A DNA stretch of 64,000 nt from an uncultured bacterium (GTDB lineage: Bacteria; Bacillota_I; Bacilli_A; RFN20; CAG-826). The position numbers were made by a program, and so were the translations under genes. The stretch covers positions 391,928-455,927 of the forward strand of contig CASFKG010000001.1 in assembly GCA_949295325.1 (NCBI GenBank), read 5' to 3'. The notes below the pieces were generated by a model. That model had not been told where the DNA came from and did no database searches. It saw only the letters and a program-made list of their open reading frames with translations. This document shows positions 12,938 to 60,117 of the stretch, one piece after another (within the stretch, counting starts at the first letter, position 1; every line of letters begins with the position of its first letter).

Positions 12938-12938
12938 T

Positions 12939-15575: not shown

Positions 15576-15585
15576 GTGCTTCTCC

Positions 15586-17622
<2,037 letters not shown>

Positions 17623-18914: not shown

Positions 18915-18985
18915 GCGGATAGTTTACTACTACGTAGTAAAAAAGAAAACGCCTTTCGGCGTCTTCCAAGCACTATTCAGAAGGC

Positions 18986-26085: not shown

Positions 26086-26086
26086 G

Positions 26087-27399: not shown

Positions 27400-28192
27400 A
27401 AACTACTTCGAAGGGATTAGGCAATACAAACTCCTTGCCAAGCGGGAAGTAGGCCAGAACTTCTTGGCCAACCCGGTGCTTGCCTCCAAGGTTGTGGACC
27501 TACTGGGCGGCGATACTTCGGGAAAGGTTTTGGAAATCGGTTCGGGTGCGGGATCTCTCACCTACTTTCTAATCGAAAGGGGCTTCCGCGGCAAGGCCAT
27601 AGACATCGACGAAGGCCTGGTTGCCAAACTCAGCAACGATTTCCCCCACAACGACTCCATCGAGATAGTCCGTTCGAATGCCTTGGAAGAAGACATGTCG
27701 GGCTATGCCTACATCATAGGCAACCTGCCCTACTACATAACATCGGCCATCCTCGAAAGATGCCTATTGGAAACCAAATCGGCTTCCAAGGCGGTTTTCA
27801 TGGTCCAAAAGGAAGCCTACGAAAGGATAACCGCGAAACCCGGCAGCAAGGATTATTCTCCCTTGGGCATCGTTTTCGGGCTCGTCGGCAAGGCCAAGAA
27901 AGAATTTTCCGTGTCGCCGTCGAATTTCGTCCCCGCGCCGCACGTGGACTCCCTCGTTTTCTCCTATTCATATAGCCAAGGCAGGGATTTGGAATTCTAT
28001 TCCGAGTTCTACGATTTCCTGAAGGCCGCCTTCTCGCTCAGGAGGAAGACCATCGCGAATTCCCTGTCGAGGAAATACGGGGGAAAAGCCCTCGGCGATG
28101 CGCTGAAGGACCTCTGTTTGGAAAAGGCCAGGGCGGAATCACTAGACGTCCAAACCCTCCTTCGGCTTTTCCTTAGACTAAGGAAAAACTGA
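27389..28192 (+). CDS. rsmA: 16S rRNA (adenine1518/1519-N6) dimethyltransferase
   Basis: SAM-binding motif VLEIGSGAGSLT and conserved NLPY motif. 267 aa. Confidence 0.9.
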   Translation: MNSENYFEGIRQYKLLAKREVGQNFLANPVLASKVVDLLGGDTSGKVLEIGSGAGSLTYFLIERGFRGKAIDIDEGLVAKLSNDFPHNDSIEIVRSNALEEDMSGYAYIIGNLPYYITSAILERCLLETKSASKAVFMVQKEAYERITAKPGSKDYSPLGIVFGLVGKAKKEFSVSPSNFVPAPHVDSLVFSYSYSQGRDLEFYSEFYDFLKAAFSLRRKTIANSLSRKYGGKALGDALKDLCLEKARAESLDVQTLLRLFLRLRKN

Positions 28193-28241
28193 CAAATCGT
28201 TCTTCTATAACGGAGGCAAACCGCTAATAATAGACTGAGCC

Positions 28242-29093
28242 ATGATAGTCAAATCGTTCGGGAAGATTAATCTAAGCCTCTCCGTCAAGGGAGTTAAGGA
28301 TGATGGCTACCACCTTCTTGAGATGGTGAATCTCCCCATTGAACTCCACGACACAATCGAAATCACCTCCTCCCCCTATCTGCAGGATAGTTTCGTCACC
28401 TGCGACGATGCCCACCTGAATGCCCTGCACCACAACCTTTGCAGCAAAGCCCTCGAGGCCATGCGTGCCAAGTACGGCTTCAAGGAAAACTTCCTCATCC
28501 ACATACACAAGGAAATCCCCTTCGCCGCCGGATTGGGCGGAGGATCGAGCAACGCCGCCGCGGTGATGCTCGCCGTCGCCAAAATGCTCAAGCTCAAGGC
28601 CGACATCAAGGATTTGACGGAAATCGGCGCCTCGATCGGTGCCGACGTCCCCTATTTCCTGGCTTCTTCTCCGGCCTATCTGACCGGAATCGGCGAAAAC
28701 GTCCGTCCGCTTAAGGCCAAGGACTCCTACGAAGTGCTTTTGATAAAGCCCGAAAAAGGACTTAGCACCAAGGAAGTCTATGCCATCTGCGATAAATACG
28801 GCCGCTTGGACATCCATACAGAAAAGGTCATCGAAGGCCTGGAAAAAGGCGACACCGACCTAATCGTCAAAAACGCCGGAAACGACCTGACCTCCGCGGC
28901 CATAGAGCTATTGCCCGAAATCGACACGGTCATCGAGGAACTGAAGTCGGACGGCGCCTTCTTCTACGTCGCCATGACGGGGTCCGGATCGTCCGTCTAC
29001 GGACTTACCAAAGACGCCCGCCGGGCGCGTGAAGCCTTCAGGCGCTTCGACAAGAAGGGCTACAACGTTTATTTGACGAGGACCATGAGATGA
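28242..29093 (+). CDS. ispE: 4-diphosphocytidyl-2-C-methyl-D-erythritol kinase
   Basis: GHMP kinase with start MIVKSFGKINLSL and glycine-rich PFAAGLGGGSSNAAA motif. Confidence 0.9.
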   Translation: MIVKSFGKINLSLSVKGVKDDGYHLLEMVNLPIELHDTIEITSSPYLQDSFVTCDDAHLNALHHNLCSKALEAMRAKYGFKENFLIHIHKEIPFAAGLGGGSSNAAAVMLAVAKMLKLKADIKDLTEIGASIGADVPYFLASSPAYLTGIGENVRPLKAKDSYEVLLIKPEKGLSTKEVYAICDKYGRLDIHTEKVIEGLEKGDTDLIVKNAGNDLTSAAIELLPEIDTVIEELKSDGAFFYVAMTGSGSSVYGLTKDARRAREAFRRFDKKGYNVYLTRTMR

Positions 29094-30487
29094 ACAGATA
29101 CGCAATCGTTTTGGCGGCCGGGAAAGGCAGCCGCATGAAAAGCCTCAGGGACGATATATCGAAGGTCAGCTACCCCATATTGAAGGTGCCCCTTGTCGAT
29201 TATGTCCTCAGGAGTCTCAAACCCCTTGGGCTCAGCCGCGTCATAACCGTCCTCGGCTTCGGCGGGGAAACATCCGAGAAGATTGTCGAAGGCAAGGCGG
29301 AAGTCGTTTGGCAAAGGGAACAGAAAGGCACCGGCCACGCGATAATGCAGGCTTCTCCGCTGCTGGGGGGTTTGGAAGGCTCCACCATAATCTGCTGCGG
29401 AGATACGCCACTATTAACGACGCAAACCCTGGATGATTTATTGAAAAAACACGAGGATTCGCATAACGATTTGACGATTCTCACCGGTATTTTGGATGAT
29501 CCCCGCGGCTATGGGAGAATAATCGAAAACGGCGGAGGGCGGGTCGTTGCCATCCGCGAGCAGAAGGACTGCTCGGAGGAAGAAAACGGAATCCGCAAGA
29601 TAAACGCCGGCGTATACGTCTTCGACAACAGGCTCCTCTTCGAATGCCTGCCGCTTCTGAAGCCGGGAAACAAAGCCAAGGAATACTACCTGACCGACCT
29701 CGTCGGCATCTTCAACGAAAAAGGCTATAGGGTCGGCGCGATGGTATGCGAGGACTTCGACGAAACGTTGGGGGTCAACGACCGCGTCCAGCTCGCCGCC
29801 GCGGCGAAGATTATCCGCGGGCGCATCAACCGTGCCCTCATGCTAAGCGGCGTCTCCATAGAGGATCCGGAGAATACCTATATCGGCCCGGACGTCGAAA
29901 TCGGCCCGGACACCGTTATCGCCCCCGGCACCCATATCTACGGGCATACGAAGATCGGATGCGGGAACCACATCGGACCCTCGACCTATCTCGAAAACAC
30001 GGCAATCGGCAACGACAACGTCATCGAATTTTGCCATATTACCGATAGCGAAGTCTTCAACCACACGACGCTCGGCCCCTATTTCCGGGCCCGCAAGGGC
30101 GTGAAGGTCCGCGACGGCGCCCACATAGGAAACTTCAATGAAATGAAAAACGTCGACTTCGGCGAAGGCAGCAAGTGTGCCCATCTTAGCTATCTCGGCG
30201 ATTCCGACATAGGCAAAAACGTCAATGTCGGCTGCGGAACGATCGTCGCCAACTACGACGGTGTGAACAAATTTCACTCCAAGGTCGACGACAATGCCTT
30301 CATCGGTTCCGGCACCATCCTCATCTCCCCCGTGCACATGGGGAAAGGAAGCCTATCCGCCGCCGGAAGCACTATTACCAAGGACATAGAGGAAGATTCG
30401 ATGGGAATCGCCCGCGGCAGGCAGGAAAACAAGCCCGGTTATGCCATAACCTACCACCGAAAGGCTTTGGACAAAAAAGGCAGATAA
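29090..30487 (+). CDS. glmU: bifunctional UDP-N-acetylglucosamine pyrophosphorylase/glucosamine-1-phosphate N-acetyltransferase
   Basis: N-terminal LAAGKGSRMKS nucleotidyltransferase motif and C-terminal left-handed beta-helix hexapeptide repeats. 465 aa. Confidence 0.93.
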   Translation: MNRYAIVLAAGKGSRMKSLRDDISKVSYPILKVPLVDYVLRSLKPLGLSRVITVLGFGGETSEKIVEGKAEVVWQREQKGTGHAIMQASPLLGGLEGSTIICCGDTPLLTTQTLDDLLKKHEDSHNDLTILTGILDDPRGYGRIIENGGGRVVAIREQKDCSEEENGIRKINAGVYVFDNRLLFECLPLLKPGNKAKEYYLTDLVGIFNEKGYRVGAMVCEDFDETLGVNDRVQLAAAAKIIRGRINRALMLSGVSIEDPENTYIGPDVEIGPDTVIAPGTHIYGHTKIGCGNHIGPSTYLENTAIGNDNVIEFCHITDSEVFNHTTLGPYFRARKGVKVRDGAHIGNFNEMKNVDFGEGSKCAHLSYLGDSDIGKNVNVGCGTIVANYDGVNKFHSKVDDNAFIGSGTILISPVHMGKGSLSAAGSTITKDIEEDSMGIARGRQENKPGYAITYHRKALDKKGR

Positions 30488-30504
30488 ATCATTTTCCACC
30501 GAAG

Positions 30505-30531
30505 AAACGCACGAGCGACGTGCGTTTTTTC
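30505..30531 (+). terminator. Rho-independent terminator of glmU
   Basis: Hairpin ACGCACG-agcga-CGTGCGT followed by TTTTTT. Confidence 0.55.
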
Positions 30532-30541
30532 ATATAAAAAA

Positions 30542-30570
30542 GCCAGCCCGTGGAAGGGCTGGCCCGAAGC
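30542..30570 (-). terminator. Rho-independent terminator of ppdK
   Basis: Hairpin GCCAGCCC-gtggaa-GGGCTGGC with a T-run on the minus strand (plus-strand AAAAAA at 30536-30541). Confidence 0.55.
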
Positions 30571-30576
30571 GTTAAT

Positions 30577-33261
30577 CTACTTCTTGATGATGTAGGTCTT
30601 CTTGACGTCCTTAACGGCCTTTTCCCTCTCGTGGAGGATATTGGCCTGGGCCGCGGCGAGGCGGGCGACAGGGACGCGGAAGGGCGAGCAGGAGACGTAA
30701 TCGAGTCCGACCTTGTCGTAGAACGTGATGGATGCCGGATCGCCGCCGGTTTCGCCACAGACGCCAACGGTGAGGTTGGGATTGGTGGCACGGCCGCGTT
30801 CGAAGGCGATCTTCACCAGTTCGCCGACGCCTTTGACGTCGATGGTCTGGAACGGATCGAATTCGTAGATCTTCTTGTCGTAGTAGTAACCGAGGAACTG
30901 TTGGGCATCGTCACGGCTGAAGCCCATGGTAAGCTGGGTCAGGTCGTTGGTGCCGAAGCTGAAGAATTCGGCTTCCTGGGCGATTTCGCCGGCCATGAGG
31001 GCGCCCCGCGGGACTTCGATCATCGTACCGACGTGGTACTTCATGTGGCTGCCGGCCTTGGCGATTTCGCCGTCGACGGCTTCGGTCACGATGTTCTTGA
31101 CGTAGCGGAACTCCTTGATCTCTTCGGTCAAAGGAATCATGATTTCCGGCTCGACGGGCTGCCCGAGGTCCTTTTCGGCCTTGAGGGCGGCTTGCGCGAT
31201 GGCGGTGGCCTGCATCCGGTAGATTTCCGGATAGGCAACGGCCAGACGGCATCCGCGGAAGCCCATCATCGGGTTCATCTGGATAAGGGAAGTAATCCTG
31301 TCGCGGACTTTCTGCTCGGTGACTCCGAGGTCATGGGCGATTTCCTTGATCTTGTCGGTTTCGGCAAGCGAAGGAAGGAACTCGTGCAAAGGCGGATCCA
31401 GCAAACGGATGCAGACATGGCTGCCCGGATTTGCCATATACATCTTGTAGAAGTCCTCGACCTGGTAAGGACGGAGCTTCTCAAGGGCGGCAACCCTCTG
31501 TTCGGTGGTATCGCTTAGGATCATCGCGCGCATATGGAGTATGCGGTCGGTGCCGAAGAACATGCGTTCGGTACGGCAGAGGCCGATGCCTTCCGCGCCG
31601 AAATTGTTGCCGACGTCGGCATCGGTCGGGGTGTTGGCGTTCACGCGGATCTTGAGGCGGCGGTACTTGTCGGCCCAATCCATCATGCGTCCGAAGTCTC
31701 CGCTCAAGGAGGCATCGATCATCTTGATGGAGCCTTCGTAGATGTTCCCGGTGGAACCGTCGACGGAGACGATGTCGCCGTCATGGAATACCTTGTCGCC
31801 GACGGTGAGAGTCTTCTTCTCTTCGTCGATAAGGGCGTTGGAGCAGCCGACGACGCAGCACTTGCCCATGCTACGGGCAACGACCGCGGCGTGGGAGGTC
31901 ATGCCGCCACGCTGGGTGATGATGGCTTCGGCGTTGACCATGCCGATGATGTCTTCGGGGCTGGTTTCCGCACGGGCCAATACCACGTTGACCTTGCTAT
32001 CCTTCCTGGCTTTCGCCTCTTGGGCGGTGAATACCAAAGCGCCGGTTCCGGCACCCGGTGATGCGGGTAGACCGGTAAGGAACGGGGTGTGCTTCTTTTC
32101 GTCCTCGGCGTCGAAGGTCGGGTGAAGCAGATCGTTTAGCTGCTTGGGTTCGACGCGGAGGCAGGCTTCCTTCTCGTCGATCAGGCCTTCGTCGACCAAA
32201 TCGCAGGCAATCTTGAGGGCCGCCCTGGCGGTACGCTTGCCGTTACGGGTCTGCAGGAAGTAAAGTTTGCCGTCTTCGATGGTGTACTCCATGTCCTGCA
32301 TGTCCTTGTAGTGATGTTCCATCGATTTGATGGTTTCAAGGAACTGTTTGTAGACATCCGGCATGAGCTTGTTCAGCTCGTCGATGTGCATCGGGGTGCG
32401 GACGCCGGCAACGACGTCTTCGCCTTGGGCATTGAGTAGGAATTCGGCATAGACCTTGTTTTCGCCGGTCGAGGGGTTGCGTGAGAAGGCAACGCCGGTG
32501 CCGGAACGTTCATTGAGGTTTCCGAAGACCATGGATTGGACGTTGACGGCGGTGCCCCATTCGTAGGGGATGCCGTTCATCTTGCGGTAGACGTTGGCAC
32601 GTTCGTTGTCCCAGCTGCGGAACACGGCGGCAACGGCTTCGCGGAGCTGAACGTAGGGATCGGTCGGGAATTCCTCGCCGACGGTCTTCAGATAATAGGC
32701 CTTGTACTTTTTGACTAGTTCCTTGAGGTCTTCGGCTGGGACCTCGTAGTCCATCTTGTAGCCCTTCTTTTCCTTGAGTTCATCTAGCATCGCGTCCATT
32801 TCGGTACGGGGGAATCCCTTGGCGATGTTAGTGAACATCAAGATGAAGCGGCGGTAGGAGTCGTAGGCAAACCTGGCATTGTTGGTTTCCGAGGCCAGCA
32901 CTTCGACCGTTTTGTCGTTCAAGCCGAGGTTCAATATGGTATCCATCATGCCCGGCATGGAGATGCGGGCGCCGGAACGGACCGACACCAGCAAGGGACG
33001 GTGGTCCCCGCCGAAGGTCTTTCCGGTTTTCTTCTCAACCTCGTGGATGTGAGCGACAATGTCGTTCCAGACAAAGTCCGGGATGTTCTTGCCGGACTTG
33101 TAGTAGAGCGTGCAGGCAGCGGTGGTGACGGTAAATCCAGGGGGGATGGGCACCCCGATGGAGGTCATCTCGCTGAGTCCAGCGCCTTTGCCCCCGAGAA
33201 GGTCCTTGCCGAGTTTGGCTTCATGGCCTTCTTCGAAGGAGTAGACGTATTTTTCTTCCAT
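30577..33261 (-). CDS. ppdK: pyruvate, phosphate dikinase
   Basis: 894 aa with an N-terminal ATP-grasp GGKGAGL..., a central phosphohistidine domain and a C-terminal PEP-utilising TIM barrel. Confidence 0.95.
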   Translation of the reverse strand: MEEKYVYSFEEGHEAKLGKDLLGGKGAGLSEMTSIGVPIPPGFTVTTAACTLYYKSGKNIPDFVWNDIVAHIHEVEKKTGKTFGGDHRPLLVSVRSGARISMPGMMDTILNLGLNDKTVEVLASETNNARFAYDSYRRFILMFTNIAKGFPRTEMDAMLDELKEKKGYKMDYEVPAEDLKELVKKYKAYYLKTVGEEFPTDPYVQLREAVAAVFRSWDNERANVYRKMNGIPYEWGTAVNVQSMVFGNLNERSGTGVAFSRNPSTGENKVYAEFLLNAQGEDVVAGVRTPMHIDELNKLMPDVYKQFLETIKSMEHHYKDMQDMEYTIEDGKLYFLQTRNGKRTARAALKIACDLVDEGLIDEKEACLRVEPKQLNDLLHPTFDAEDEKKHTPFLTGLPASPGAGTGALVFTAQEAKARKDSKVNVVLARAETSPEDIIGMVNAEAIITQRGGMTSHAAVVARSMGKCCVVGCSNALIDEEKKTLTVGDKVFHDGDIVSVDGSTGNIYEGSIKMIDASLSGDFGRMMDWADKYRRLKIRVNANTPTDADVGNNFGAEGIGLCRTERMFFGTDRILHMRAMILSDTTEQRVAALEKLRPYQVEDFYKMYMANPGSHVCIRLLDPPLHEFLPSLAETDKIKEIAHDLGVTEQKVRDRITSLIQMNPMMGFRGCRLAVAYPEIYRMQATAIAQAALKAEKDLGQPVEPEIMIPLTEEIKEFRYVKNIVTEAVDGEIAKAGSHMKYHVGTMIEVPRGALMAGEIAQEAEFFSFGTNDLTQLTMGFSRDDAQQFLGYYYDKKIYEFDPFQTIDVKGVGELVKIAFERGRATNPNLTVGVCGETGGDPASITFYDKVGLDYVSCSPFRVPVARLAAAQANILHEREKAVKDVKKTYIIKK

Positions 33262-33320
33262 TCTGTCCTCCTAAGACAAATTAGGGGTGGAACCACCCCA
33301 ACGGCGAAACTATAACACGG

Positions 33321-34982
33321 TTGCTTTCTTCAAAGAAGAAGGATAACCGGAACATTTGCCTACAAAGACCTTCCGGGACGTATAAAATGGTCTCTATGGA
33401 AAATAACGGAAACGACTCTCCCTTGGTCCTGACGGTCGACTTCGGCACGCAGAGCGTCAGGGTCACCCTGTTCAACAAGAAGGGGGCAGCGGTTGTGATG
33501 GAGCGGGAAAAGTACGATCCGCCCTATTTTTCGAAGGAGCCCAACTTCGCCGAGCAGGATCCCGAGGTCTACTATGCCTGCCTATGCAGGTGTTGCAGGA
33601 AGATAGCTTCGGAGCATGCCACCTTATTAAATAGGGCGAAGGCGATGACCCTTACCTGTTTCAGGGACTCAGCGGTCACCCTCGACAAGGACTATAAACT
33701 CGTCCGGCCGATGATACTTTGGCTCGACCAAAGGGTCGCGAAATGTTCGAAAAAGCTGCCGGTTATTTCCAGACTGCTTTTCTCCATAGTCGGAATGCTT
33801 CCTACCGCGGAGCTGAACCGCGAGAGATCGATGGCCAATTGGATCAAGGAACACGAACCGGAAAATTATGCAAAAATCGCCCATTACATATCGGTTTCCA
33901 CATATTTCACTTGGAAATTGACGGGGATAATGAAGGACTGTGCCAGCAACTATGCCGGCCACTACCCCATCGATTTCAAGAAAAAGAAGTTCTACCGTTC
34001 CCCCGAACGCCATTTGAAAGGGCAGATATTCGGAGTCAAGAAAGAGTGGCTGCCGGAACTCGTGAAGGAAGGGGCATTCATCGGGAAAATAACTCCGAAG
34101 GCAGCTGAGGAAACCGGTCTCCCGGAAGGGTTGCCTTTCTATGCCGGCGGAAGTGATAAATCCTGTGAGACCCTGGGACTCGGGGTAATCGACGACAGGG
34201 ACGTCGCTATCAGTTGCGGCACCGCATCCACGATCGAGACGACCGTGAAAAAATACATACCATCCGAGCCGTTTTTGCCTGGGTATGCCGCTTGTCTTGA
34301 CGGATATTACAACATGGATATCCAGATTTACCGCGGATATTGGATGATCAACTGGTTCTTAAAGGAATTCGGGGCCCAGCCAATCGAAGACCTCATAATC
34401 TCCCAGACCAACGCAGACGAGTTCAATAAAAAGCTCTCCAATGTACCCCCGGGATGCGACGGCTTGGTGCTTCAGCCCTATTGGGGACCGGGCCTTTCCA
34501 GGCCTCTGGCCAAAGGGGCGATAATCGGGTTCAGCGACGTCGTTACCCAAGAACATCTTTACCGGGCCATAATCGAAGGAATCGGCTATGCCTTGCGGGA
34601 AGGGATGGAGCGCTTTGCCAAGAAGCTCGGCCATTCCTTCGGGAACATCCGTATATCCGGCGGCGGTAGCCAGTCAGACGAAGTCTGCCAAATCACCAGC
34701 GACATTTTCGGTATGCCGGTTAAACGGGTGCAGACGAGCGAAACCTCTTCTTTGGGCGCGGCAATATGCGCCTTTCTCGCCATAGGCGAGTTCAACAGCG
34801 TCGAGGAAGCCGTCTTCAACATGGTGCACGAAAAGGAGACTTTCAGGCCCAATCCCGAAAACAAGAAGATTTACGATTATCTTTTCTACAACGCCTACGA
34901 ACTCATCTACCCCCGCCTCAGGACGATTTACGGGAACATCAAGGAGTTCAACATCGAACACACCCGCAAGCTCAAGGGCTAG
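33321..34982 (+). CDS. FGGY-family carbohydrate kinase (xylulokinase/ribulokinase-like)
   Basis: N-terminal ...LVLTVDFGTQSVRVTLF... actin-fold kinase motif. The start could instead be Met23 at 33387. Confidence 0.85.
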   Translation: MLSSKKKDNRNICLQRPSGTYKMVSMENNGNDSPLVLTVDFGTQSVRVTLFNKKGAAVVMEREKYDPPYFSKEPNFAEQDPEVYYACLCRCCRKIASEHATLLNRAKAMTLTCFRDSAVTLDKDYKLVRPMILWLDQRVAKCSKKLPVISRLLFSIVGMLPTAELNRERSMANWIKEHEPENYAKIAHYISVSTYFTWKLTGIMKDCASNYAGHYPIDFKKKKFYRSPERHLKGQIFGVKKEWLPELVKEGAFIGKITPKAAEETGLPEGLPFYAGGSDKSCETLGLGVIDDRDVAISCGTASTIETTVKKYIPSEPFLPGYAACLDGYYNMDIQIYRGYWMINWFLKEFGAQPIEDLIISQTNADEFNKKLSNVPPGCDGLVLQPYWGPGLSRPLAKGAIIGFSDVVTQEHLYRAIIEGIGYALREGMERFAKKLGHSFGNIRISGGGSQSDEVCQITSDIFGMPVKRVQTSETSSLGAAICAFLAIGEFNSVEEAVFNMVHEKETFRPNPENKKIYDYLFYNAYELIYPRLRTIYGNIKEFNIEHTRKLKG

Positions 34983-35548
34983 TAGGACAACAGTTTCATG
35001 CAGGCCGCTTTGTTGAAGGCGGCCTTTTTGCTTTCCCTCAATCTAAGCAGATATCCTATCAGGTAGTCGAAAACCGCACGGCTTTTTTCCGCATAATCCC
35101 CATAGGGGATAAGTTCTTCCCTGGCCGCCTGTTCGAGCAATTGGGACATGGCCGATAACGGCTCGGGCCCGAATTGCCGGTTGTCTTTGTCCTTCCGCAA
35201 GTCCCGTCTAAGTTCAAACAGGGCGAAGTTTATTTCCCTATCGCTCAAATCGCGGTTTTCGAAAAACGAAGTTACCATCCCGAGACCTTCCAAGGAGCCG
35301 GAACGTTGTGCCCTTGCCCAGGCAATGGTGTGCATCTTTTCCTTGGCCTTTGCCAAAGCGGAGATGAGTTCTTCCCTGTTTCCGAAATAATGGTAGGCCA
35401 GTCCGTGGCTCGCGCCGGCGGTTTTGCCGAGTTCGTTGAAGGTAAGGCCACCCAGGCCTTTTTCGGAAATTATCAGGAAAGCGGCTTCGAGCAGGCTTTC
35501 CTTCCTTGCTTCCTTGATTTTCCTGTTCGCTAGACTCGTCCTTGGCAT
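34979..35548 (-). CDS. TetR/AcrR-family transcriptional regulator
   Basis: N-terminal HTH ...GLTFNELGKTAGASHGLAYHYF.... 189 aa. Confidence 0.8.
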   Translation of the reverse strand: MPRTSLANRKIKEARKESLLEAAFLIISEKGLGGLTFNELGKTAGASHGLAYHYFGNREELISALAKAKEKMHTIAWARAQRSGSLEGLGMVTSFFENRDLSDREINFALFELRRDLRKDKDNRQFGPEPLSAMSQLLEQAAREELIPYGDYAEKSRAVFDYLIGYLLRLRESKKAAFNKAACMKLLSY

Positions 35549-35596
35549 CGCGAATATTCTAAAACACTTCCGGCTTCGTGGTAGAATGGCCCGACC

Positions 35597-36133
35597 ATGA
35601 AAACGGTAGTCCTTTACAAAAGCCGCACCGGCAATACCCAGAGATACGCCGAAGACATCGCTAGGCGCGTGAACGGCGAAGTCTATCCGTTGAAGAAAGG
35701 CTGGCTTAAAAAGATCGAGGATGCCGACTGCATCGTTTTTGGCGGCTACGTACAGGCCGGAATCATCGCCGGCCTAGACGATTTTTTGAGCGAATTCGAG
35801 CGCTTCAGCGACGTACCGATCCTGATATTCGCGGTAGGAATGGCCTACCCCACGAAGGAAGGCAGGCAGGATCTCATCACCGGGAACCTCTTGGACATGT
35901 ATCATGTGCGCTTCTACCAGGTTCAAGGCGGGTTCGATTTAAACAAACTCGGTTTATTCAACCGCCTGATGATGAAAAGGACCCTTTCGGCGATGGCTGG
36001 AAAGGAAGACGCAACCGCGGCGGAAAGGAGCCTCGGCGATTTGCTTAACCGTCCGCTCGCCGTCTACGACCATGAGAAAATCGACAAGATAGTAAGCGTC
36101 ATCAATACCCTTTCGCTGGAGGCCAAGGCGTGA
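35597..36133 (+). CDS. flavodoxin-like protein
   Basis: MKTVVLYKSRTGNTQRYAEDIA... FMN-binding flavodoxin N-terminus. 178 aa. Confidence 0.75.
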   Translation: MKTVVLYKSRTGNTQRYAEDIARRVNGEVYPLKKGWLKKIEDADCIVFGGYVQAGIIAGLDDFLSEFERFSDVPILIFAVGMAYPTKEGRQDLITGNLLDMYHVRFYQVQGGFDLNKLGLFNRLMMKRTLSAMAGKEDATAAERSLGDLLNRPLAVYDHEKIDKIVSVINTLSLEAKA

Positions 36134-36690
36134 TTCTCGTCGCGGGACTGGGAAATCCCGGAAGGGAGTACGAAGGAACCCGGCACAACATGGGGTACAT
36201 GGCGGTCGATGCCCTTGCCGATGATTTGTCGCTCAGCTTCGACAAAAAGGATTTTAAAGGAATATATTGCCGTTATAGGAATCCTGAGTTAGACGATGAT
36301 GTAATTTTGCTGAAACCAGAAACTTTCATGAATCTATCCGGAGAAAGCGTCCAAGCTTGTGCATCTTTCTTTAAAATTCCATTAGATAAGATTGTTGTCG
36401 TCTATGACGACATGGCTATAAACCCCGGGCATATCCGCCTTAGGAAGGATGGTTCCTCGGGTGGCCACAAAGGCATGGGCGACATCATAAACAAGATGGG
36501 TACCGCCAATATAAAAAGGATTAGAATCGGCATCGGGGAACCGGCGTTCAACCCCGTCGACTTCGTCTTGGGCAAGCCGAAGGGGGACGAGCTTGCCTTA
36601 TGCGAACAGGGCATCGATTTGGCCAAGAAAGCCATCAAGGATTACCTGTTACGTGGTTTCGACCACGCAATGAATGCCTATAATCGGTAA
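36130..36690 (+). CDS. pth: peptidyl-tRNA hydrolase
   Basis: ILVAGLGNPGREYEGTRHNMG... canonical Pth N-terminus. 186 aa. Confidence 0.92.
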   Translation: MILVAGLGNPGREYEGTRHNMGYMAVDALADDLSLSFDKKDFKGIYCRYRNPELDDDVILLKPETFMNLSGESVQACASFFKIPLDKIVVVYDDMAINPGHIRLRKDGSSGGHKGMGDIINKMGTANIKRIRIGIGEPAFNPVDFVLGKPKGDELALCEQGIDLAKKAIKDYLLRGFDHAMNAYNR

Positions 36691-36734
36691 GGGGGCTATT
36701 TATAGAACTCCTAAAGATACTTACTGATGCCGGT

Positions 36735-39700
36735 TTGACCTCCCCCCTCCATGGCGGCAGGGGGCGTTTCGTCGTGGACGAGACGGCCGGCCTAGCGCCG
36801 CTTCTTGCCGCGGAGTTTAGCAAATACCGCCGTCCTTTCGCCGTGGTTGCCACCACCCTGTATTCAGCCGAAAAACTTTATACTTCGTTGCTCGATTACC
36901 TGAAGGAAGAGGAGGTCGTCTATTTTCCGGCGGATGAACTTCTCAGGGCCGAGGCGATTACCTCCGGAAAAGAATTCCTTGCCCAAAGGCTATATGCCCT
37001 TTCGAGGCTTTTGGATAAATCCCCTAAGGTACTGGTTACCCATCCGGCGGCGCTTCTCCGTTACCAAAGCGACCCCAAGGTATTCGGCGAGTCGGTCGTA
37101 AGGCTGAAGGTCGGGGACCATTACGATATTTCCAAACTCAAGGCCGAGCTCTCGAGCCTTGGCTATACCAGGGTCGATAAAATCGACCAAAGTCTCCAAT
37201 TCGCTTCGAGGGGCGACATCGTCGACTTCTTTTCCGTAAGCGACGAGGCCCCGACGAGAATCGAGTTTTTCGATGACGAAGTGGAATCGATACGCAGTTT
37301 CGACGTGGCAACCCAGGTATCAAAAAACGAGCTAAAGGAAGCCGTGGCGATGCCTGGCTCCGACATGGTACTAAGCGAAGACGAACTGGCCGACTTCGCA
37401 AGGCGCATAACCGAACTAGGCAAGAGGGATTCAGATACCATGCCGGGCGAGATGGCAAGGGAATTCAATGCCAGGATTTCCGATGCCATAAGCGCCTATA
37501 TTGAGAGACGCTACGACCCAAAACTGTACAAATACTTTGGATTTGCGGTGAATAAACCGTGGTCGGTTTTGGATTATTTCTCGCCTGATTTTGTATTTAT
37601 CGCCAACAAAACCCACTTCGAACAATCGGTTTCATCTTTGATTAGCGAAGCCGATAGATATTACGGCGAACTCAGGGAAAGGCTGCTCATACCGGCGGGA
37701 CTGGAACAATACATGAATCCCGCCAAGGCCCTCAAGGACAAGGAAGTCATCTATAGCGAGCGCTTTGCCAAAAGCAGGGACGAGGAAGTAATAGATCTTA
37801 AGCCAATCGTTTCCAACGGCCACGGCCTTGCCGCGATAGCCAACACCATCAAGGCCTACTCCGATCCGGCCTACCGTACCGTTTTGTGCATCAGCCAGCC
37901 TCATGAACGGGAAGTCGTTGCCGGGCTGCTAAAGGAGAACTCATACGAATATAGGGAAATAAAAGGCCTCGATATACCGGAAGGCCCGGGAATATACGTA
38001 AGTTCCTATCCCATTTCCGCTGGATTCGAGTCCCCCGGGCTCAAGCTCGCGGTAATTTCCTCCTATGAATTATTCGGACGGCAAGGCGGCCGAAGGGTCA
38101 ATTCGAGATTTAGGGAAGCCACGGTTTTGAAATCGTACGAAGACCTCCATCCCGGCGACTACGTCGTCCACGAATATAACGGCATCGGACAGTTCCTCGG
38201 GGTTTCCACCTTGGAGACCAACGGGCGCCATCGCGACTACCTGACCATCATCTACGCGGACAACAACAAACTCTATGTCCCCTTGGAACAATTCAGGCTG
38301 GTAAGGAAATATGCCGGACGCGAAGGTGCGGCGCCAAAGCTAAGCCGCCTATATAGCAAGGATTGGGAAAAGCGTAAGGCCAAAATCCAGGAAAAGGTCA
38401 ACGAACTGGCCGAACGCCTGATGGCCCTTTATAGCGAACGGGCCAAAATCGACGGCTTTGCCTTCAAACCAGATAGTCCCAGGCAAGAAAGATTCGAGGC
38501 GGAATTCCCCCACGAACTAACTCCTGACCAGAAGAGGTCGCTCGAAGAGATAAAACACGATATGGAAGCCCCGGAGGTCATGGACCGTCTCCTCTGCGGT
38601 GACGTGGGATTTGGGAAAACCGAAGTGGCTTTCAGGGCCGCTTTCAAGGCACTCGACAACGGGAAACAGGTAGCCTTGCTCTGCCCGACAACCCTGCTCG
38701 CCAGACAACACTACGAAGTGGCGCTGGAGAGGTTTGCCGGCTATTACGGAAAGGAACAGATCGCCCATCTTTCGAGGCTCGTAAAGCCAAACGACCAAAA
38801 AACTATAATTTCAGGTCTAAAAGATGGGAAAGTACGCTTGGTGATAGGTACGCACAGGCTACTTAGCAAAGAAATAGAATTCCAAGACTTAGGGCTTCTC
38901 ATCATTGATGAGGAACAGAGGTTCGGGGTCGAGCAAAAAGAAAAAATAAAGGAACTAAAGAAGAATGTTGACGTCCTAAGTCTCTCCGCTACGCCGATTC
39001 CTAGGACCCTCCAGATGTCCCTGCTTGGAATAAGACCGCTTAGCGAAATCAATACGGCTCCCAGCGAGCGGACCCCGGTCGAAACCTACGTTGCCCCCTA
39101 TAACGAGGATATAGCCGTGGAACTTCTCTCCCGCGAAATCGCTAGGCACGGCCAAGCCTACTACGTTCACAATGTCATCGATTCGATTTACGGGAAGGCC
39201 GCTTCTTTGAATAGGCGCCTTCCGGCGGCTTCTTTCGGCGTGGTCCACGGAAAGATGGACAAATCGGAAACCGAAGACGTCATGAACGACTTTTACGACG
39301 GGAAGATCGACGTGTTGGTCGCCACTTCCATAATCGAAAACGGAATCGATGTGCCCAACGCCAATTTGCTCATAGTCGAGGATGCCGACCACTTCGGATT
39401 GAGCCAGCTTTATCAGATAAAGGGGCGTGTCGGCCGCAGCAACCGCATGGCCTATGCCTACCTTTTCTACCGCCCCGAGAAGAACATGAACGAAGACGCG
39501 GTCAAGCGGCTTCAGGCCATACAGGAATTCTCGGAATTGGGAAGCGGATACAAAATCGCCCAGCGGGACCTGCTCATCCGCGGGGCCGGGGATATCCTCG
39601 GCCCGGAGCAGGCCGGGTTCATCGATTCCATCGGTCTCGATCTCTATCTGAAGATGCTTAACGAAGCCATCGAGGAAAGGAAATCCGGAGTCAAAAAAGA

Positions 39701-40169
39701 AGAGCCAAAGCCCGTCACCGTCTTCGATATCGATGCCTATATCCCGAAGGATTTTGCCTCCGAGGAAGACCGCATCGCCATATATCAGGAGCTCGGCTCC
39801 ATCGATAGTCTCAAGGAAATCCGGAAGTACGTGGCCAAGCTGAAAGACATACACGGCCGGCTGCCGAAAGAAGTGGAACTTCTGGTGGAAAAAAGAAAGG
39901 TGGATATCTTGGCCACGAAGCCGGCTTTCGAGTCGCTCGAAGAAACGAAGGCCTACGTGGATGTCACATTGAGTTCCGCGTTTACTTCCATTTCCGGGAT
40001 AGGCACCGACCTTTTTTCCGCGATGGTCCCCTACCTATCTAACATCCGCATGACCTATATCGACAAAAAACTGAAACTCAGATATACGAAAAGCAGGGCT
40101 TGGCTTAGGGATCTTCAGAACATTCTTAGCATCATAGAAGAACTTTATGAAAGCAAAAAGAATCCGTAA
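36735..40169 (+). CDS. mfd: transcription-repair coupling factor
   Basis: 1144 aa with a UvrB-homology N-terminal region, an RNAP-interaction domain and an SF2 helicase core (GDVGFGKTEVA, DEEQRFG). Lies downstream of pth. Confidence 0.95.
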   Translation: MTSPLHGGRGRFVVDETAGLAPLLAAEFSKYRRPFAVVATTLYSAEKLYTSLLDYLKEEEVVYFPADELLRAEAITSGKEFLAQRLYALSRLLDKSPKVLVTHPAALLRYQSDPKVFGESVVRLKVGDHYDISKLKAELSSLGYTRVDKIDQSLQFASRGDIVDFFSVSDEAPTRIEFFDDEVESIRSFDVATQVSKNELKEAVAMPGSDMVLSEDELADFARRITELGKRDSDTMPGEMAREFNARISDAISAYIERRYDPKLYKYFGFAVNKPWSVLDYFSPDFVFIANKTHFEQSVSSLISEADRYYGELRERLLIPAGLEQYMNPAKALKDKEVIYSERFAKSRDEEVIDLKPIVSNGHGLAAIANTIKAYSDPAYRTVLCISQPHEREVVAGLLKENSYEYREIKGLDIPEGPGIYVSSYPISAGFESPGLKLAVISSYELFGRQGGRRVNSRFREATVLKSYEDLHPGDYVVHEYNGIGQFLGVSTLETNGRHRDYLTIIYADNNKLYVPLEQFRLVRKYAGREGAAPKLSRLYSKDWEKRKAKIQEKVNELAERLMALYSERAKIDGFAFKPDSPRQERFEAEFPHELTPDQKRSLEEIKHDMEAPEVMDRLLCGDVGFGKTEVAFRAAFKALDNGKQVALLCPTTLLARQHYEVALERFAGYYGKEQIAHLSRLVKPNDQKTIISGLKDGKVRLVIGTHRLLSKEIEFQDLGLLIIDEEQRFGVEQKEKIKELKKNVDVLSLSATPIPRTLQMSLLGIRPLSEINTAPSERTPVETYVAPYNEDIAVELLSREIARHGQAYYVHNVIDSIYGKAASLNRRLPAASFGVVHGKMDKSETEDVMNDFYDGKIDVLVATSIIENGIDVPNANLLIVEDADHFGLSQLYQIKGRVGRSNRMAYAYLFYRPEKNMNEDAVKRLQAIQEFSELGSGYKIAQRDLLIRGAGDILGPEQAGFIDSIGLDLYLKMLNEAIEERKSGVKKEEPKPVTVFDIDAYIPKDFASEEDRIAIYQELGSIDSLKEIRKYVAKLKDIHGRLPKEVELLVEKRKVDILATKPAFESLEETKAYVDVTLSSAFTSISGIGTDLFSAMVPYLSNIRMTYIDKKLKLRYTKSRAWLRDLQNILSIIEELYESKKNP

Positions 40170-55320: not shown

Positions 55321-55608
55321 GTGCGGATCGACAAGTTCCTGAAGGTAAGCCGGCTTACCAAGCGCCGGGAAACGGCGAGGGCGTTATGCGATGCCGGTCT
55401 GGTAAGCATGAACGGCAAGGTCGCCAAACCTAGCAGCGAAGTCGATGCCGGGTCCCTCTTGGTATTGAGAATGGGCCGGAGGGTCGTTACCGCGAAAGTA
55501 CTCTCCGTTAGGCCCTACGCCAACAAGGACGAAGCGCAGAAGATGTACCAGATAGAAAGCGATGAACCGCTGAAGGAGGACGCTACTGATGGAATACAAG
55601 ATAATTAA
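55321..55608 (+). CDS. S4-domain RNA-binding protein (YabO/Hsp15-like)
   Basis: 95 aa with an S4 fold pattern (MRIDKFLKVSRLTKRRETARAL...). Overlaps tilS start as in Bacillus yabO. Confidence 0.8.
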   Translation: MRIDKFLKVSRLTKRRETARALCDAGLVSMNGKVAKPSSEVDAGSLLVLRMGRRVVTAKVLSVRPYANKDEAQKMYQIESDEPLKEDATDGIQDN

Positions 55609-56842
55609 GGGACGCAATTATTTGCTGGCCTGTTCTTTTTCCGCCGAATCGATGGCATTGCTCGACTGGCTACTGGGCCGCGGCTGCTGCCCGATCGTTC
55701 TGTTCGTCGACTATCAGCAGGCGCCTTCCGCCGACAGCGATTTGGACCGCATGAAGAAGTACTGTGCGGAAAAGGGCCTGGTCATAGAGATCTGCAAAGC
55801 CCTCGATATTCCCGCAAAAGAGGGGGAAAGCTATCAAGAATGGGCAAGAAGGGTACGTTACGACTTCTTCAAGGAGATGTACGTTAAGTACGATGCGGCG
55901 GCTTTGTTCGTCGCCCATATCCAGGACGACGTTTTGGAAACTTATATGCTGCAGAAGCAGTCCGGCGACAAGGTCGAGCACTACGGCCTTAACGAGGTCA
56001 ACACCTATCACGACATGATAGTGGTCAGGCCCCTGCTACCCTATTCCTACGACGACGTCATGGAATACATACAGGAACATTCCGTCCCCTATAGCGAGGC
56101 CATGACCCGTTTCGAGCTCGAGCACACCCATAGCGACCTGCGTCGGAACGTGATCGACAAGATGGACCAGGTCGAACGCGGCCGCATGGCCGACGAAATA
56201 AGGGCCGCCAACAACGAGCGGCTCTCTTATTTCGAGCATTTGGAGAAGGAATCCGAGGAATCCAACGAACTAAACATCCGCGAAATCATCGCCTTGGAGG
56301 AAGACGAATTCGCCCAGACCTTGATTGCCTTCGTGTCGCGGGCCGGGGACGATGTCACACTCACTCCGAAGAAAATAGCCGCCATAAGGGCTATGTGCCT
56401 GAACGGCAAGCTGTTCGACTACATGAAGATCATCGGCGATGTTTTCCTCATCAAGGAATACGACATATTGGCTTTGGGTACCAATCCCAAGGCCCTGCCC
56501 TACAGCTATACCCTGGAAAAGCCCGGCAAGCTCGAAACCGACGAATTCACTTTGGATTTCTCGATGGGAGCCGAGGACAGGGGCATTAAGGAAAGCGACT
56601 ATCCGCTTACCATCCGCACGGTCCTTCCGGCCGACCAATACGTTTCCGGCGACTACCTGCTATTCGTCAGGAGCCTTTTCCACGACTGGAAAATGCCCCC
56701 CGAATTCATCGCTAGATGGCCGGTCTTCGTAAACAAAAACGGAAAGATTGTCTACGTGCCGACATTCCGCCACGACTTCGTCGAGTACCACACTTCGGTG
56801 CTCAAACTCCACCTCGAAAACTTCGGCAAAAATAATAATTGA
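55589..56842 (+). CDS. tilS: tRNA(Ile)-lysidine synthetase homolog with non-canonical PP-loop
   Basis: TilS-like architecture and conserved RxxRYxFF and AHxxDDxxET motifs, but SGGxDS is replaced by SFSAES (nt 55634-55651). 417 aa. Confidence 0.75.
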   Translation: MEYKIIKGRNYLLACSFSAESMALLDWLLGRGCCPIVLFVDYQQAPSADSDLDRMKKYCAEKGLVIEICKALDIPAKEGESYQEWARRVRYDFFKEMYVKYDAAALFVAHIQDDVLETYMLQKQSGDKVEHYGLNEVNTYHDMIVVRPLLPYSYDDVMEYIQEHSVPYSEAMTRFELEHTHSDLRRNVIDKMDQVERGRMADEIRAANNERLSYFEHLEKESEESNELNIREIIALEEDEFAQTLIAFVSRAGDDVTLTPKKIAAIRAMCLNGKLFDYMKIIGDVFLIKEYDILALGTNPKALPYSYTLEKPGKLETDEFTLDFSMGAEDRGIKESDYPLTIRTVLPADQYVSGDYLLFVRSLFHDWKMPPEFIARWPVFVNKNGKIVYVPTFRHDFVEYHTSVLKLHLENFGKNNN

Positions 56843-56923: not shown

Positions 56924-59116
56924 ATGAACAACTCGCCAAAAAGAAGCACATTCGGTTATATTCTCCCCTATCTCCTGATAGGAGTTGTCGTGATACTGGT
57001 TATTTGGTGGATGGTCGCTGCCTTCGCCGGCGGTGGCGTCGGAATTGCCCTCGATGCGCTTGATTCCACTTTCTTCGCAACGGGAAGCAATACCCCCCAT
57101 ACAGGCCTGCACTACGTCTATCAGGTGAATGCCACGATCGGCGGCGAAATAGTGAACGTTTCCGGCTACTATGCCGATCCGCAGAATGCCAACGACCCGG
57201 AAAACTCGAGTTTCCTTTCCACTTCCTTTACCGTAGACATCCCCACCAACAGGTGGAACGAAGAATGGGCGGTCGGTACGGTTGATAGCGAAAACCCGGA
57301 AAACTACGACCATAACCTTTATTACGCCGATAGCGGGGTTTTGTTCCACTATAGCTACGCGACCCTATTCGAAAACAAAATCACGGAATGGAAGAACAGC
57401 GTTCCGAAACTTTCCAGTTCCGCGCTTTTCACCGTAAATAGCGCCTACGAAACCACCTGGTGGGAAGCCTGGGGCCCAACGATCCTTTGGATAATCATCA
57501 TGGGCGTGATGCTGTTCTTCCTTTTCCGCGCTTTCTCCAGCGTGGGAGGTTCCAACCGCCAGGCCATGGACTTCAACAAGTCCCCGGCAAGGCGCGAGGA
57601 TTCCAGCAAAGTCCGCTTCGACGACGTCGCTGGCTGCGACGAGGAAAAGGCCGAGATGGTCGAGCTCGTCGAATATCTCAAGGATCCCCAGAAATTCTCG
57701 AAATTCGGCGCCAGATTGCCCAAGGGCGTTCTTTTAATCGGCCCTCCGGGAACCGGCAAGACCCTTCTTGCCAAGGCGGTTGCCGGAGAAGCCGGCGTCC
57801 CCTTCTATTCCATTTCAGGCAGCGACTTCGTCGAAATGTTCGTCGGCGTCGGTGCCGGGCGTGTCCGCGACTTGTTCCGCAAGGCCAAGCAGACTGCCCC
57901 CTGCCTTATATTCATCGACGAAATCGATGCGGTAGGCCGCCAGCGCGGCGCCGGCCTAGGCGGGGGCAACGACGAACGCGAGCAGACCCTCAACCAGCTG
58001 CTCGTCGAAATGGACGGATTCGAGTCCAACAAAGGCATCCTCGTCATTGCGGCAACCAACCGCGAGGACGTTCTCGACCCGGCCCTCATGAGGGCAGGAC
58101 GTTTCGACCGCACCATAACGGTCAATCTGCCGGATAGGAAGGGCCGCGAAGCCATCTTCCGCGTCCATGCGCGCAACAAGAAGATCGATCCGAGCGTCGA
58201 CTTCGCCGCGCTTGCCAAGCGTACCGTCGGCTTCTCGGGCGCCGATATCGAAAACATCCTGAACGAAGCCGCGATTCTTGCGGTAAGGGAAAACGAAAAC
58301 GCGATCACCATCAAGGACATAGACGAAGCCATCGACCGCCGCATCGCCGGTCCCGCCAAACCCGGAACCCGCATGATGGCGGAGGAAAGGCGCCAAGTGG
58401 CCTACCACGAAGCCGGACACGCGGTCATCGGACTTACCCTTCCCTATAGCGACAAGGTCCAAAAGATCACCATCATCCCCAGGGGCCGCACCGGAGGCCA
58501 CGTCCTGATGACGCCCGATACCGACAGGTTCCTGCTCACCAAGCGGCAGCTTCTCGCCCGCATTACCGGGTATCTCGGCGGCCGCAGTTCCGAAGAAGTG
58601 TTCTTCGACGACATTTCGACCGGGGCCCAGAACGACATCGAGGAAGCCACCAGGATCGCACGTCTAATGGTTACCGAATACGGCATGTCGGCCCTCGGCC
58701 CGGTCCAATACGAGAAGGACTCCTCCAGCGTCTTCCTCGGCCGCGACTACAATTCGGTCCAGAAGAACTTCTCGACCCAGGTAGCCTATGAAATCGATAC
58801 TGCTGTTCGGCAGATAATCGATACCGCCCATAACGATGCCAAGAGGATCATCCTCGAGCACAAGGAACAGGTTAAGCTCATTGCCGAGACTCTTCTAGAA
58901 AAGGAAACCATCACGAGCGAAGAGATAGAGTCCTTGATCAAGGAGGGAAAGCTGCCGAGCACCGAGACCGGTGTCGTCCACCAAAAGGACGAACCTTCCG
59001 CCGCCGAGGCCAAAGCTGCCGAAGCCAAGGAGGAAACCCCGAAGCCGAAGGGAAGGCCCCGCAAGAAGGCAGAACCCAAGCAGAAGGAAGAAGAAACCAA
59101 GAAGGACGGGGAATAA
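56924..59116 (+). CDS. ftsH: ATP-dependent zinc metalloprotease FtsH
   Basis: AAA+ [13 protein letters not shown], zinc site HEAGHA, two TM helices flanking a roughly 150-aa ectodomain, Lys/Glu-rich C-terminal tail. Confidence 0.95.
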
Positions 59117-59145: not shown

Positions 59146-60117
59146 ATGGATATCGGCGGAATAAATATCCCCTCACCCGTGGTGCTGGGACCGATGGCCG
59201 GAATAACGACCTTGGCCTACCGCGAATTTTGCCGTCCTTTTGGAGTGGGACTGTCCGTCAGCGAAATGATAAGCGACTGCGGACTGGCCTACGGAAACGC
59301 GAGGACATTCGACTATTTGAAAACTTCGAAGGAGGATAGGCCGGTTGCCCTGCAGCTATTCGGAAGCGACATCTCGATCACGAAGAAGGCCATCGTGCTC
59401 ATGGAAGAGAGAGCCGATTACGACATACTCGACCTCAATTTCGGCTGTCCGGTTCACAAGGTCACCAAAACCGGGGCCGGTTCTTCTTGGCTGTCCCGGC
59501 CCGGCGAACTCTACGATTACGTACGAGGGATAGTGGCGGTTTCCCATAAACCCGTGACGGCGAAGATAAGATTGGGGACGGATAGCGGCCATATAAACGT
59601 CGACGAAATTTCCTCCCTGCTCGAAAAAGCCGGCGTGAGCGCCGTCTGCGTACATGCCCGCACGAAGGCCGCGATGTACTCTGGCAAAGCCGATTACGAG
59701 GCCATAAGGGGCCTAGGGAAAAGGCTGTCGGTACCACTGATCGTTTCCGGCGACATATTCGAGGCCGGGGATGTGCAAATGGCCATGGACATTGCGGCCG
59801 CCTCTTTCGTCATGGTGGCCAGGGGCGGGGTCGGCCGGCCCACGCTCATCCGGGACATCAATTGCCTATTGAACGGCGAGGCGATTCCGCCCTCCCCTAC
59901 GATTTTTGAGCAGTGCGGCTATGCCATCGAGTTCGCCAACAGGCTTCATGGACTTCACGGCCCTAGGGCCAGTGCCCTCGAACTAAGGGGAATACTCCCC
60001 CATTTCTTCAAGGGATTCCCAGGCTACAAGAGGATAAGAAACGACATAGCCACCAACACGAGTAGCTTCGAAGACATACTCGCGTTGCTTGAGGGAATCA
60101 AGGCGAGATACGCCTGA
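59146..60117 (+). CDS. dus: tRNA-dihydrouridine synthase
   Basis: FMN TIM-barrel motif ...LNFGCPVHKVTKTGAGSSWL.... 323 aa. Confidence 0.9.
   Translation: MDIGGINIPSPVVLGPMAGITTLAYREFCRPFGVGLSVSEMISDCGLAYGNARTFDYLKTSKEDRPVALQLFGSDISITKKAIVLMEERADYDILDLNFGCPVHKVTKTGAGSSWLSRPGELYDYVRGIVAVSHKPVTAKIRLGTDSGHINVDEISSLLEKAGVSAVCVHARTKAAMYSGKADYEAIRGLGKRLSVPLIVSGDIFEAGDVQMAMDIAAASFVMVARGGVGRPTLIRDINCLLNGEAIPPSPTIFEQCGYAIEFANRLHGLHGPRASALELRGILPHFFKGFPGYKRIRNDIATNTSSFEDILALLEGIKARYA

Follow-up and report, generated by a model that had tools for sequence, protein, structure and literature searches.

The lysidine-forming enzyme TilS is essential in nearly all bacteria and has been studied as a drug target, and the SGGxDS loop of its ATP-binding site is described as "highly conserved" (PMC12069591). 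Type I TilS enzymes, represented by the solved structures of the Geobacillus protein (3a2k) and of E. coli MesJ (1ni5), combine a PP-loop N-terminal domain with a long helical linker and two C-terminal domains, and their gene lies beside ftsH. The literature we searched holds no description of a TilS without SGGxDS, and recent papers call the motif highly conserved. Here, we analyze a stretch of 64,000 nucleotides (the window) from contig CASFKG010000001.1 of an uncultured bacterium (GTDB lineage RFN20; CAG-826). It carries, with this domain make-up and gene position, a tilS-like open reading frame (ORF) at 55589..56842 on the + strand, encoding 417 amino acids (coordinates from the ORF list and the sequence, including the stop codon). 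The PP-loop of the encoded protein reads S16-F17-S18-A19-E20-S21 (55634..55651, + strand; codons TCT TTT TCC GCC GAA TCG) in place of SGGxDS. The gene is the orthologous tilS of a lineage of uncultured, small-genome gut Bacilli, and we put the probability that it encodes a working but remodelled TilS at roughly 60%; for this enzyme we infer both catalysis and the identity of the amine. The active site appears to have been rebuilt across the whole lineage, with SFSAES as the most extreme form of its loop.

In an alignment to the family profile, SFSAES falls on the same columns as SGGPDS of Geobacillus TilS (3a2k), SGGVDS of Aquifex TilS (1wy5), and SGGLDS of the E. coli enzyme (1ni5). Because the hexapeptide aligns column for column with these three solved loops, the replacements read by the initial annotation (Gly to Phe, Gly to Ser, and Asp to Glu) are correct. 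Only Ser1 and Ser6 are identical to the signature, with Glu in place of Asp. The AlphaFold2 (AF2) model of the window protein (pLDDT 88.8, pTM 0.78; pLDDT 96 across the loop) places the hexapeptide between a predicted strand (residues 11-14) and a predicted helix (residues 19-30). The fold is that of TilS: the top Foldseek match is the TilS-tRNA complex 3a2k_A (E 1.7e-19, 450 columns), and E. coli MesJ and Aquifex TilS are further best structures, at a sequence identity of 15-20% between the window protein and solved TilS.

The altered loop is a property of a whole family. SGGxDS is found in 0 of the 120 best homologues (42-76% identity, 408-425 amino acids), whose consensus is T-Y-G-P-D-S-M-A-L-L-D. 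Loop position 2 is aromatic in 119 of these 120 sequences (Tyr 88, Phe 31, Gly 0) and position 3 is nearly always small (Gly 108, Ser 8, Ala 3, Asp 1), while position 5 holds Asp in 100, Glu in 9, and other residues in 11, and position 6 is Ser in all 120. SFSAES itself recurs in the closest other species (L003/P0002, 76% identity) and in a third species (P0004, 67%). The homologues come from uncultured gut and rumen metagenome-assembled genomes under the names Bacilli bacterium, Candidatus Enteromonas, Ca. Alloenteromonas, and uncultured Mollicutes/Erysipelotrichaceae; we take the names of Enteromonas/Alloenteromonas type to correspond to the GTDB order RFN20.

Within the family, the loop has been altered repeatedly. 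The glycine of position 3 is replaced in 13 of 123 family sequences and the acidic residue of position 5 in 12 of 123, compared with 0 of 128 sequences outside the family (Fisher p 7e-5 and 1e-4, respectively); both the second glycine and the acidic residue are invariant in these 128 relatives. A neighbour-joining tree requires at least nine independent events for the loss of Gly3 and at least ten for the loss of the acidic residue. The proposal that the window encodes a single odd enzyme, perhaps catalytically impaired, is not supported as stated: the aromatic residue at position 2 is family-wide and also common in more distant uncultured-Bacilli TilS with ordinary TIGR02432 scores, strong purifying selection acts on the variant loop, identity in the N-terminal domain stands in its usual proportion to that in the C-terminal domains, and AUA codons read as isoleucine are abundant.

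The window protein scores 101.8 bits against PF01171 (cutoff 27) and 95.5 bits against the TIGR02432 model lysidine_TilS_N (cutoff 93.6), the latter a bare pass. Family members with TYGPDS reach 117-121 bits against TIGR02432, and the window's subclade 94-102. One family member (P0032, from locus L017, loop TYGSPS) is named merely "ATP-binding protein" by the NCBI pipeline. The family profile matches the solved Geobacillus TilS 3a2k at E 1.8e-32 across residues 9-401. All parts of the type I architecture (PMC12514573) are present. Residues 1-190 form the N-terminal, catalytic PP-loop ATPase domain (55589..56158, + strand; Pfam and NCBIfam matches to residues 11-189, AF2 secondary structure), residues 191-225 the long helical linker (56159..56263, + strand; AF2 helices 194-207 and 209-224), and the remainder the C-terminal domains CTD1 (about residues 226-300) and CTD2 (about 301-417; together 56264..56839, + strand), which align to 3a2k residues 255-445 and to the C-terminal TilS fragment 3hj7. 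Linker, CTD1, and CTD2 are recovered by AF2, by Foldseek, and by the profile alignment to residue 401. Against the TilS_C models PF11734 and TIGR02433, the window protein remains below threshold.

The gene also occupies the tilS position. Gene order in the window is an S4-domain gene (YabO/Hsp15-like; 55321..55608, + strand; PF01479 E 6.9e-10), which overlaps the tilS start by 20 nucleotides, then tilS, ftsH (56924..59116, + strand; TIGR01241 758.9 bits), and a dusB-like tRNA dihydrouridine synthase gene (59146..60117, + strand; PF01207 E 2e-62; TIGR00737 264 bits, under the cutoff of 293). A scan of one genome per species yielded 80 related loci, in which the S4 gene lies immediately 5' of tilS in 76 and ftsH immediately 3' in 71; the family therefore sits in the tilS position. 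Profiles and gene order together confirm what the initial annotation had proposed, namely a TilS homologue between an S4 gene and ftsH. In Bacillota, a place beside ftsH is conserved for tilS, and Bacillus subtilis has this order. At least 80 species-level genomes, including one closed chromosome of 1.06 Mb, have kept tilS in this syntenic position. In the window, a Shine-Dalgarno sequence, AAGGAGG (55572..55578, + strand; read from the sequence), lies 10 nucleotides 5' of the tilS ATG, and the start is further supported by an N-terminus that lines up with all homologues.

When 1.84 billion representative proteins were searched for distant relatives, the loops formed a gradient. S-[FY]-G-P-D-S predominates in the relatives that come next (24-34% identity, about 400-415 amino acids, from uncultured Bacilli/Erysipelotrichales), and when one of these, P0131, served as the query, S[FY]GPDS was present in 114 of the 114 other matches listed. 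Remoter relatives (67 sequences) carry SGGxDS, and intermediate loops (SSG, SNG, SHG, SCG, and SAG) are found among the relatives. TIGR02432 scores are 159-172 bits for S[FY]G relatives versus 160-167 bits for the SGG type. The first glycine is thus often replaced, apparently with no effect on the remainder of the active site; its loss is tolerable, given that the S[FY]GPDS TilS score normally and that the CysD loop reads S-I-G-K-D-S. Our protein searches and cluster look-ups returned no cultured or characterised organism with an S[FY]G loop. The S[FY]GPDS TilS (e.g., P0131, P0129, and P0145) resemble the window protein in the aromatic residue at position 2 and in length. Unlike the window protein, they retain a strict G-P-D-S, DxSN, RN, K154, R45, and the basic residues of CTD2, and they match TilS_C.

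Other PP-loop enzymes offer partial parallels. CysD (sulfate adenylyltransferase subunit 2, 1zun), an ATP-cleaving enzyme of solved structure, has a hydrophobic non-glycine residue at position 2 (loop Y-S-I-G-K-D-S), and CysH, the reductase of 3'-phosphoadenosine 5'-phosphosulfate (PAPS) (E. coli 1sur; 2o8v), has an aromatic one (S-S-S-F-G-I-Q-A). The window protein and other family members give weak matches to PF01507, the model of this PAPS reductase/CysD branch; for the window protein the match stays under the gathering threshold (18.0 versus 22.5 bits) and spans residues 100-170 only. Foldseek matches the window protein to PAPS and adenosine 5'-phosphosulfate (APS) reductases at E 4e-6 to 8e-5. 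The resemblance to the PF01507 branch goes no further than the S-F-x loop and the common fold, and CysD and CysH differ from the window protein in their substrates and domain make-up, in the absence of tRNA-binding domains, and in keeping the glycine at position 3.

We set the window's family against its S[FY]G and SGG relatives in a column-by-column comparison of the three groups. Two further motifs that had been read in the protein were recovered. The segment A-R-R-V-R-Y-D-F-F at residues 86-94 contains RxxRY (R87-R-V-R90-Y91; 55847..55861, + strand), with R90 and Y91 invariant in the family and in both distant groups, and the segment A-H-I-Q-D-D-V-L-E-T at residues 109-118 matches HxxDDxxET (H110-I-Q-D113-D114-V-L-E117; 55916..55939, + strand), with H110, D113, D114, and E117 conserved at 0.97-1.00 in all three groups. 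By column conservation, R147-P-L-L is also kept (56027..56050, + strand), followed by Y154 in place of the Lys/Arg of all other TilS: K154 is conserved at 0.94-0.96 in distant relatives versus 0.42 in the window's family, and 3a2k, 1wy5, and 1ni5 have R/K there. The invariant or near-invariant residues that the family has kept are S21, R87, R90, Y91, H110, D113, D114, E117, R147, P148, R185, W377, and P378. With type I TilS, the window protein shares RxxRY, HxxDDxxE, RPLL, the last loop Ser, and the W-P motif of CTD2.

A number of further universal TilS residues have been replaced. Residues 171-185, A-M-T-R...H-S-D-L-R (56099..56143, + strand), take the place of D-x-S-N...R-N-x-x-R, and only the last arginine (R185) is kept. 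We take this segment to lie near the lysine site, in a TilS-specific subdomain. Both the SGG and the S[FY]G relatives conserve D171, N174, R181, and N182 at 0.96-1.00, and all four occur in the three solved TilS; the window's family has K (0.24) and S (0.20), not Asp and Asn, as the commonest residues at 171 and 174, with R181 at 0.73 and Ser182 at 0.71. Of the residues shared by all three solved TilS, the family has lost D171 and N174 (DxSN), R181 (partly), N182, and K/R154, and of those conserved in its relatives, also H39 and R45 of the HVNYxxR segment and K358, R362, D366, K368, and R374 of CTD2. The window protein has A171, R174, H181, S182, Y154, F39, A45, L358, S362, and I374 at these positions. 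It differs from type I TilS in SFSAES, in the absence of DxSN, in H-S for RN, in the Tyr at the basic residue after RPLL, in lacking the CTD2 equivalents of K358, R362, and R374, and in carrying the family motif DFSMGAEDR.

The losses are accompanied by gains. The family has invariants of its own (E67, W85, Q112, M143, R197, R231, R267, D292, D323-F324, G327-A328, R331, and Y338) and a family-specific six-residue insert at 74-79. The motif L-D-F-S-M-G-A-E-D-R-G-I...D-Y-P-L-T-I-R, at residues 322-343 (56552-56617), is invariant or nearly so in the family and absent from SGG-type relatives. Its gain in CTD2, together with the loss of the canonical basic residues, may reflect changed tRNA recognition, and judged from the sequences, the overall pattern of loss and gain looks like that of a re-optimised enzyme, not a decaying one. 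Since the family has lost several other universal TilS residues, the question of altered catalysis concerns the whole lineage and not one enzyme, and it is larger than the point originally raised about the loop.

The variant loop is under strong purifying selection. Between the window gene and that of L003, dN/dS is 0.15 overall, 0.13 in the catalytic domain, and 0.15 in the C-terminal domains, at a dS of about 1.2. The two proteins do not differ in residues 1-29, although their codons there do so synonymously; within the loop, these codon differences are TTT/TTC at Phe17 and TCC/AGT at Ser18. We also asked whether the catalytic domain evolves faster in the SFSAES clade and saw no sign of it; the ratio of N-terminal to C-terminal domain identity in the window's subclade is that of the rest of the family.

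AUA usage, which the initial annotation had named as a measurement to make, is heavy. ATA accounts for 302 of the 1222 Ile codons (24.7%) in the 43 long ORFs of the window, or 15.4 per 1000 codons at 54.8% GC, roughly threefold the frequency that PMC12514573 gives for E. coli. In the long ORFs of the window (e.g., 397-62461), ATA (288) outnumbers ATT (200), yet T-ending codons outnumber A-ending ones in six of six four-fold families; the excess is specific to the AUA codon. Gain of a tRNA-Ile gene or a UAU anticodon are possible sources of this excess. An AUA excess was also seen in L011, L014, and L019.

These codons are read as isoleucine. At the AUA sites of tilS, ftsH, and dusB (8, 9, and 13 codons, respectively), Ile makes up 50% and Met 6% of the orthologue residues, the same as at ATT/ATC sites, and AUA decoding is needed here. 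RFN20 includes clades with the sense-codon reassignments AGG to Met and CGG to Trp (PMC8629427), and because of these clades the reading of both codons matters; in the window AGG and CGG are Arg, and we rejected a non-standard code of this kind.

Across the related loci, the AUA share of Ile codons runs from 0.3% to 36%. It is 2% in the sister species L003, which has the same SFSAES, and 25-27% in genomes with NYGPQS. We considered a link between loop degeneracy and low AUA use and rejected it, as no consistent relation holds across these loci; the index of AUA excess likewise shows no tie to the loop variant. A tRNA scan found no tRNA gene in the window, in the 10 kb beyond its 5' end (L084), or in the 80 related loci; the scan also covered 10-kb walks from the first and last complete window genes. 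The sole match in the loci was a tmRNA in L061. An isoleucyl-tRNA synthetase (IleRS) gene was absent from the window and the related loci. As to a second tilS, neither the window nor L084 contains an ORF with SGGxD[ST], and within 10 kb the other loci contain no ORF with SGGxDS.

A different solution to AUA decoding is known from Mycoplasma mobile, which uses tRNA-Ile(UAU) without TilS, and some bacteria are known to carry a tRNA-Ile(TAT) gene alongside tilS (PMC3575796). M. mobile is comparable as an alternative reading of AUA in reduced-genome, Mollicutes-like bacteria, an option that the initial annotation had also raised. It differs in having no tilS gene at all, whereas the window's lineage has retained and conserved tilS. 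In decoding of this type, the diagnostic IleRS residue is Arg/Lys instead of Trp.

As a working but remodelled enzyme, the window TilS would adenylate C34 of tRNA-Ile2(CAU) and transfer an amine (lysine, presumably), which would allow AUA to be decoded as isoleucine. The loop may have reached its present form in three steps. The first glycine of SGGxDS would have been replaced by Phe/Tyr in a broad set of uncultured-Bacilli TilS; the window's family would then have relaxed loop positions 3-5, with other universal residues replaced and new invariants arising; and in the window's subclade the loop would have settled on S-F-S-A-E-S. This hexapeptide retains the two serines at its ends, of which the last is invariant; its position 3 is still small, and its position 5 is still acidic and might therefore continue to bind Mg2+. 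The loop aspartate of Aquifex TilS (Asp36) reportedly coordinates Mg2+, and that enzyme is also said to possess a lysine tunnel. From species to species, TilS activity varies over a range of more than 1000-fold that bears no relation to how much AUA is used (PMC12514573), and because of this range, and because a single tRNA species is modified, a weakened ATP site may suffice. In favour of this reading, the best supported of those considered, are also the intact remainder of the catalytic core, the strong selection on the loop, and the organism's dependence on AUA as isoleucine. The most probable outcome is that the window TilS still makes lysidine.

Several points weigh against a working enzyme. 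No PP-loop ATP pyrophosphatase without the second glycine is known to us to be active. The position of the loop Asp is filled by Ala, Ser, Thr, Pro, or Gln in some family members, and the last loop Ser is missing from L062, L068, L077, and L082 (NTGADA) and from L073 (NFSPDG), at about position 10040 of each locus. DxSN, RN, K/R154, R45, and the basic residues of CTD2, conserved at 0.9-1.0 in the relatives, are gone from the family. The window protein clears TIGR02432 by just 1.9 bits, and all family sequences come from uncultured organisms.

The same losses raise the possibility that the protein is a dead or near-dead TilS relic, kept for tRNA binding or another non-enzymatic role, with AUA decoded alone or redundantly by tRNA-Ile(UAU). 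We consider this unlikely. Both the relic and an enzyme of altered chemistry gain weight because Gly3 and Asp5 have been lost recurrently and DxSN and RN are missing, and both lose weight because conservation is strong. For a relic speak the disappearance of both glycines, DxSN, RN, and K154, and the recurrence of Gly3 loss (at least nine events) and acidic-residue loss (at least ten) inside the family, against 0 of 128 outside. AUA use unrelated to loop state across related genomes points the same way; an efficient UAU tRNA could explain AUA over-use, and the coexistence of tilS with tRNA-Ile(TAT) in some bacteria provides a precedent (PMC3575796). Selection and conservation argue otherwise. 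The catalytic-domain dN/dS is 0.13, the loop region is identical between species at a dS of about 1.2, S21, H110, D113, D114, E117, R90, and R147 are invariant or nearly so, and the gene has been kept syntenic in at least 80 species-level genomes. To our knowledge, TilS has no non-catalytic role.

An active enzyme with altered chemistry, which would place another amine on C34, use another nucleotide or metal geometry, or act on a changed tRNA, is likewise improbable. It would fit the replacement of residues 171-182, universal in other TilS, and the loss of CTD2 basic residues, and the family's own invariants and six-residue insert resemble re-optimisation more than decay. C34 chemistry does vary elsewhere, with agmatidine in archaea and ava2C in some bacteria (PMC11938285), and RFN20 already has two sense-codon reassignments (PMC8629427). 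On the other hand, the AUA sites behave as ordinary Ile codons and AGG and CGG are standard in the window, and fast evolution of the lineage could account for much of the divergence, given that its TadA and DusB also fall below their cutoffs.

A still broader form of the idea is an order-wide re-engineered TilS that dispenses with the canonical PP-loop, Mg2+, and lysine-site geometry, and that either installs another C34 modification or has handed AUA over to a UAU tRNA and taken on a new role; we hold this to be doubtful. Of the few sense-codon reassignments known in bacteria, two are already found in this lineage.

A mistake of sequencing or assembly, or a recent pseudogene, has next to no chance of being the explanation for the odd loop, as its sole support is the prior expectation of an invariant SGGxDS, and it is refuted by loop DNA that does not differ between three assemblies (the 654-kb NCBI contig, ENA metagenome ERZ17292901 of 322 kb, and Logan run ERR10610505 of 26 kb), by the intact ORF with its good Shine-Dalgarno sequence, by SFSAES in two more species and in 10 of 10 full-length strain variants of the L003/P0002 protein, and by purifying selection. 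The local error that the initial annotation had allowed for is not borne out, and it would have been indicated by canonical orthologues; the orthologues lack SGGxDS, and the error can therefore be set aside. The variant is real.

A large family under purifying selection has lost one or both glycines of the loop, sometimes the aspartate, and several further universal residues, in organisms that are still AUA-heavy. Either PP-loop ATP pyrophosphatases tolerate far more variation in their accepted catalytic signature than has been supposed, or this lineage has found a new solution to AUA decoding. In addition, automated surveys of tilS loss could miscount these genomes as lacking tilS, because the family scores so close to the TilS annotation cutoff and at least one member has been annotated simply as an ATP-binding protein.

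The remainder of the window contains a replication-origin block and translation genes, which span 10085-21614 (- strand) and 24769-40169 (+ strand). On the - strand lie serS (10651-11928), gyrA (12939-15575), gyrB (15586-17622), dnaN (18986-20107), and dnaA (20259-21614), and on the + strand mnmE (24769-26085), rsmA (27389-28192), pth (36130-36690), and mfd (36735-40169), all above their NCBIfam cutoffs. The products of these genes and FtsH pass their cutoffs comfortably. Two further tRNA-modification genes of the window are unusually divergent, both falling below equivalog cutoffs: the DusB-like gene described above and a TadA-like deaminase gene (10085-10633, - strand; 110.7 bits, under the cutoff of 150). 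Part of the TilS divergence may be general to the lineage, as in TadA and DusB. Just outside the window, in the 10 kb on its 5' side (L084), a methionyl-tRNA synthetase (MetRS) gene of 536 amino acids lies at 5179-6789 (- strand), about 3.2-4.8 kb before the window start, and near it are genes for ribosomal protein L31 and a TrmA-like tRNA U5-methyltransferase.

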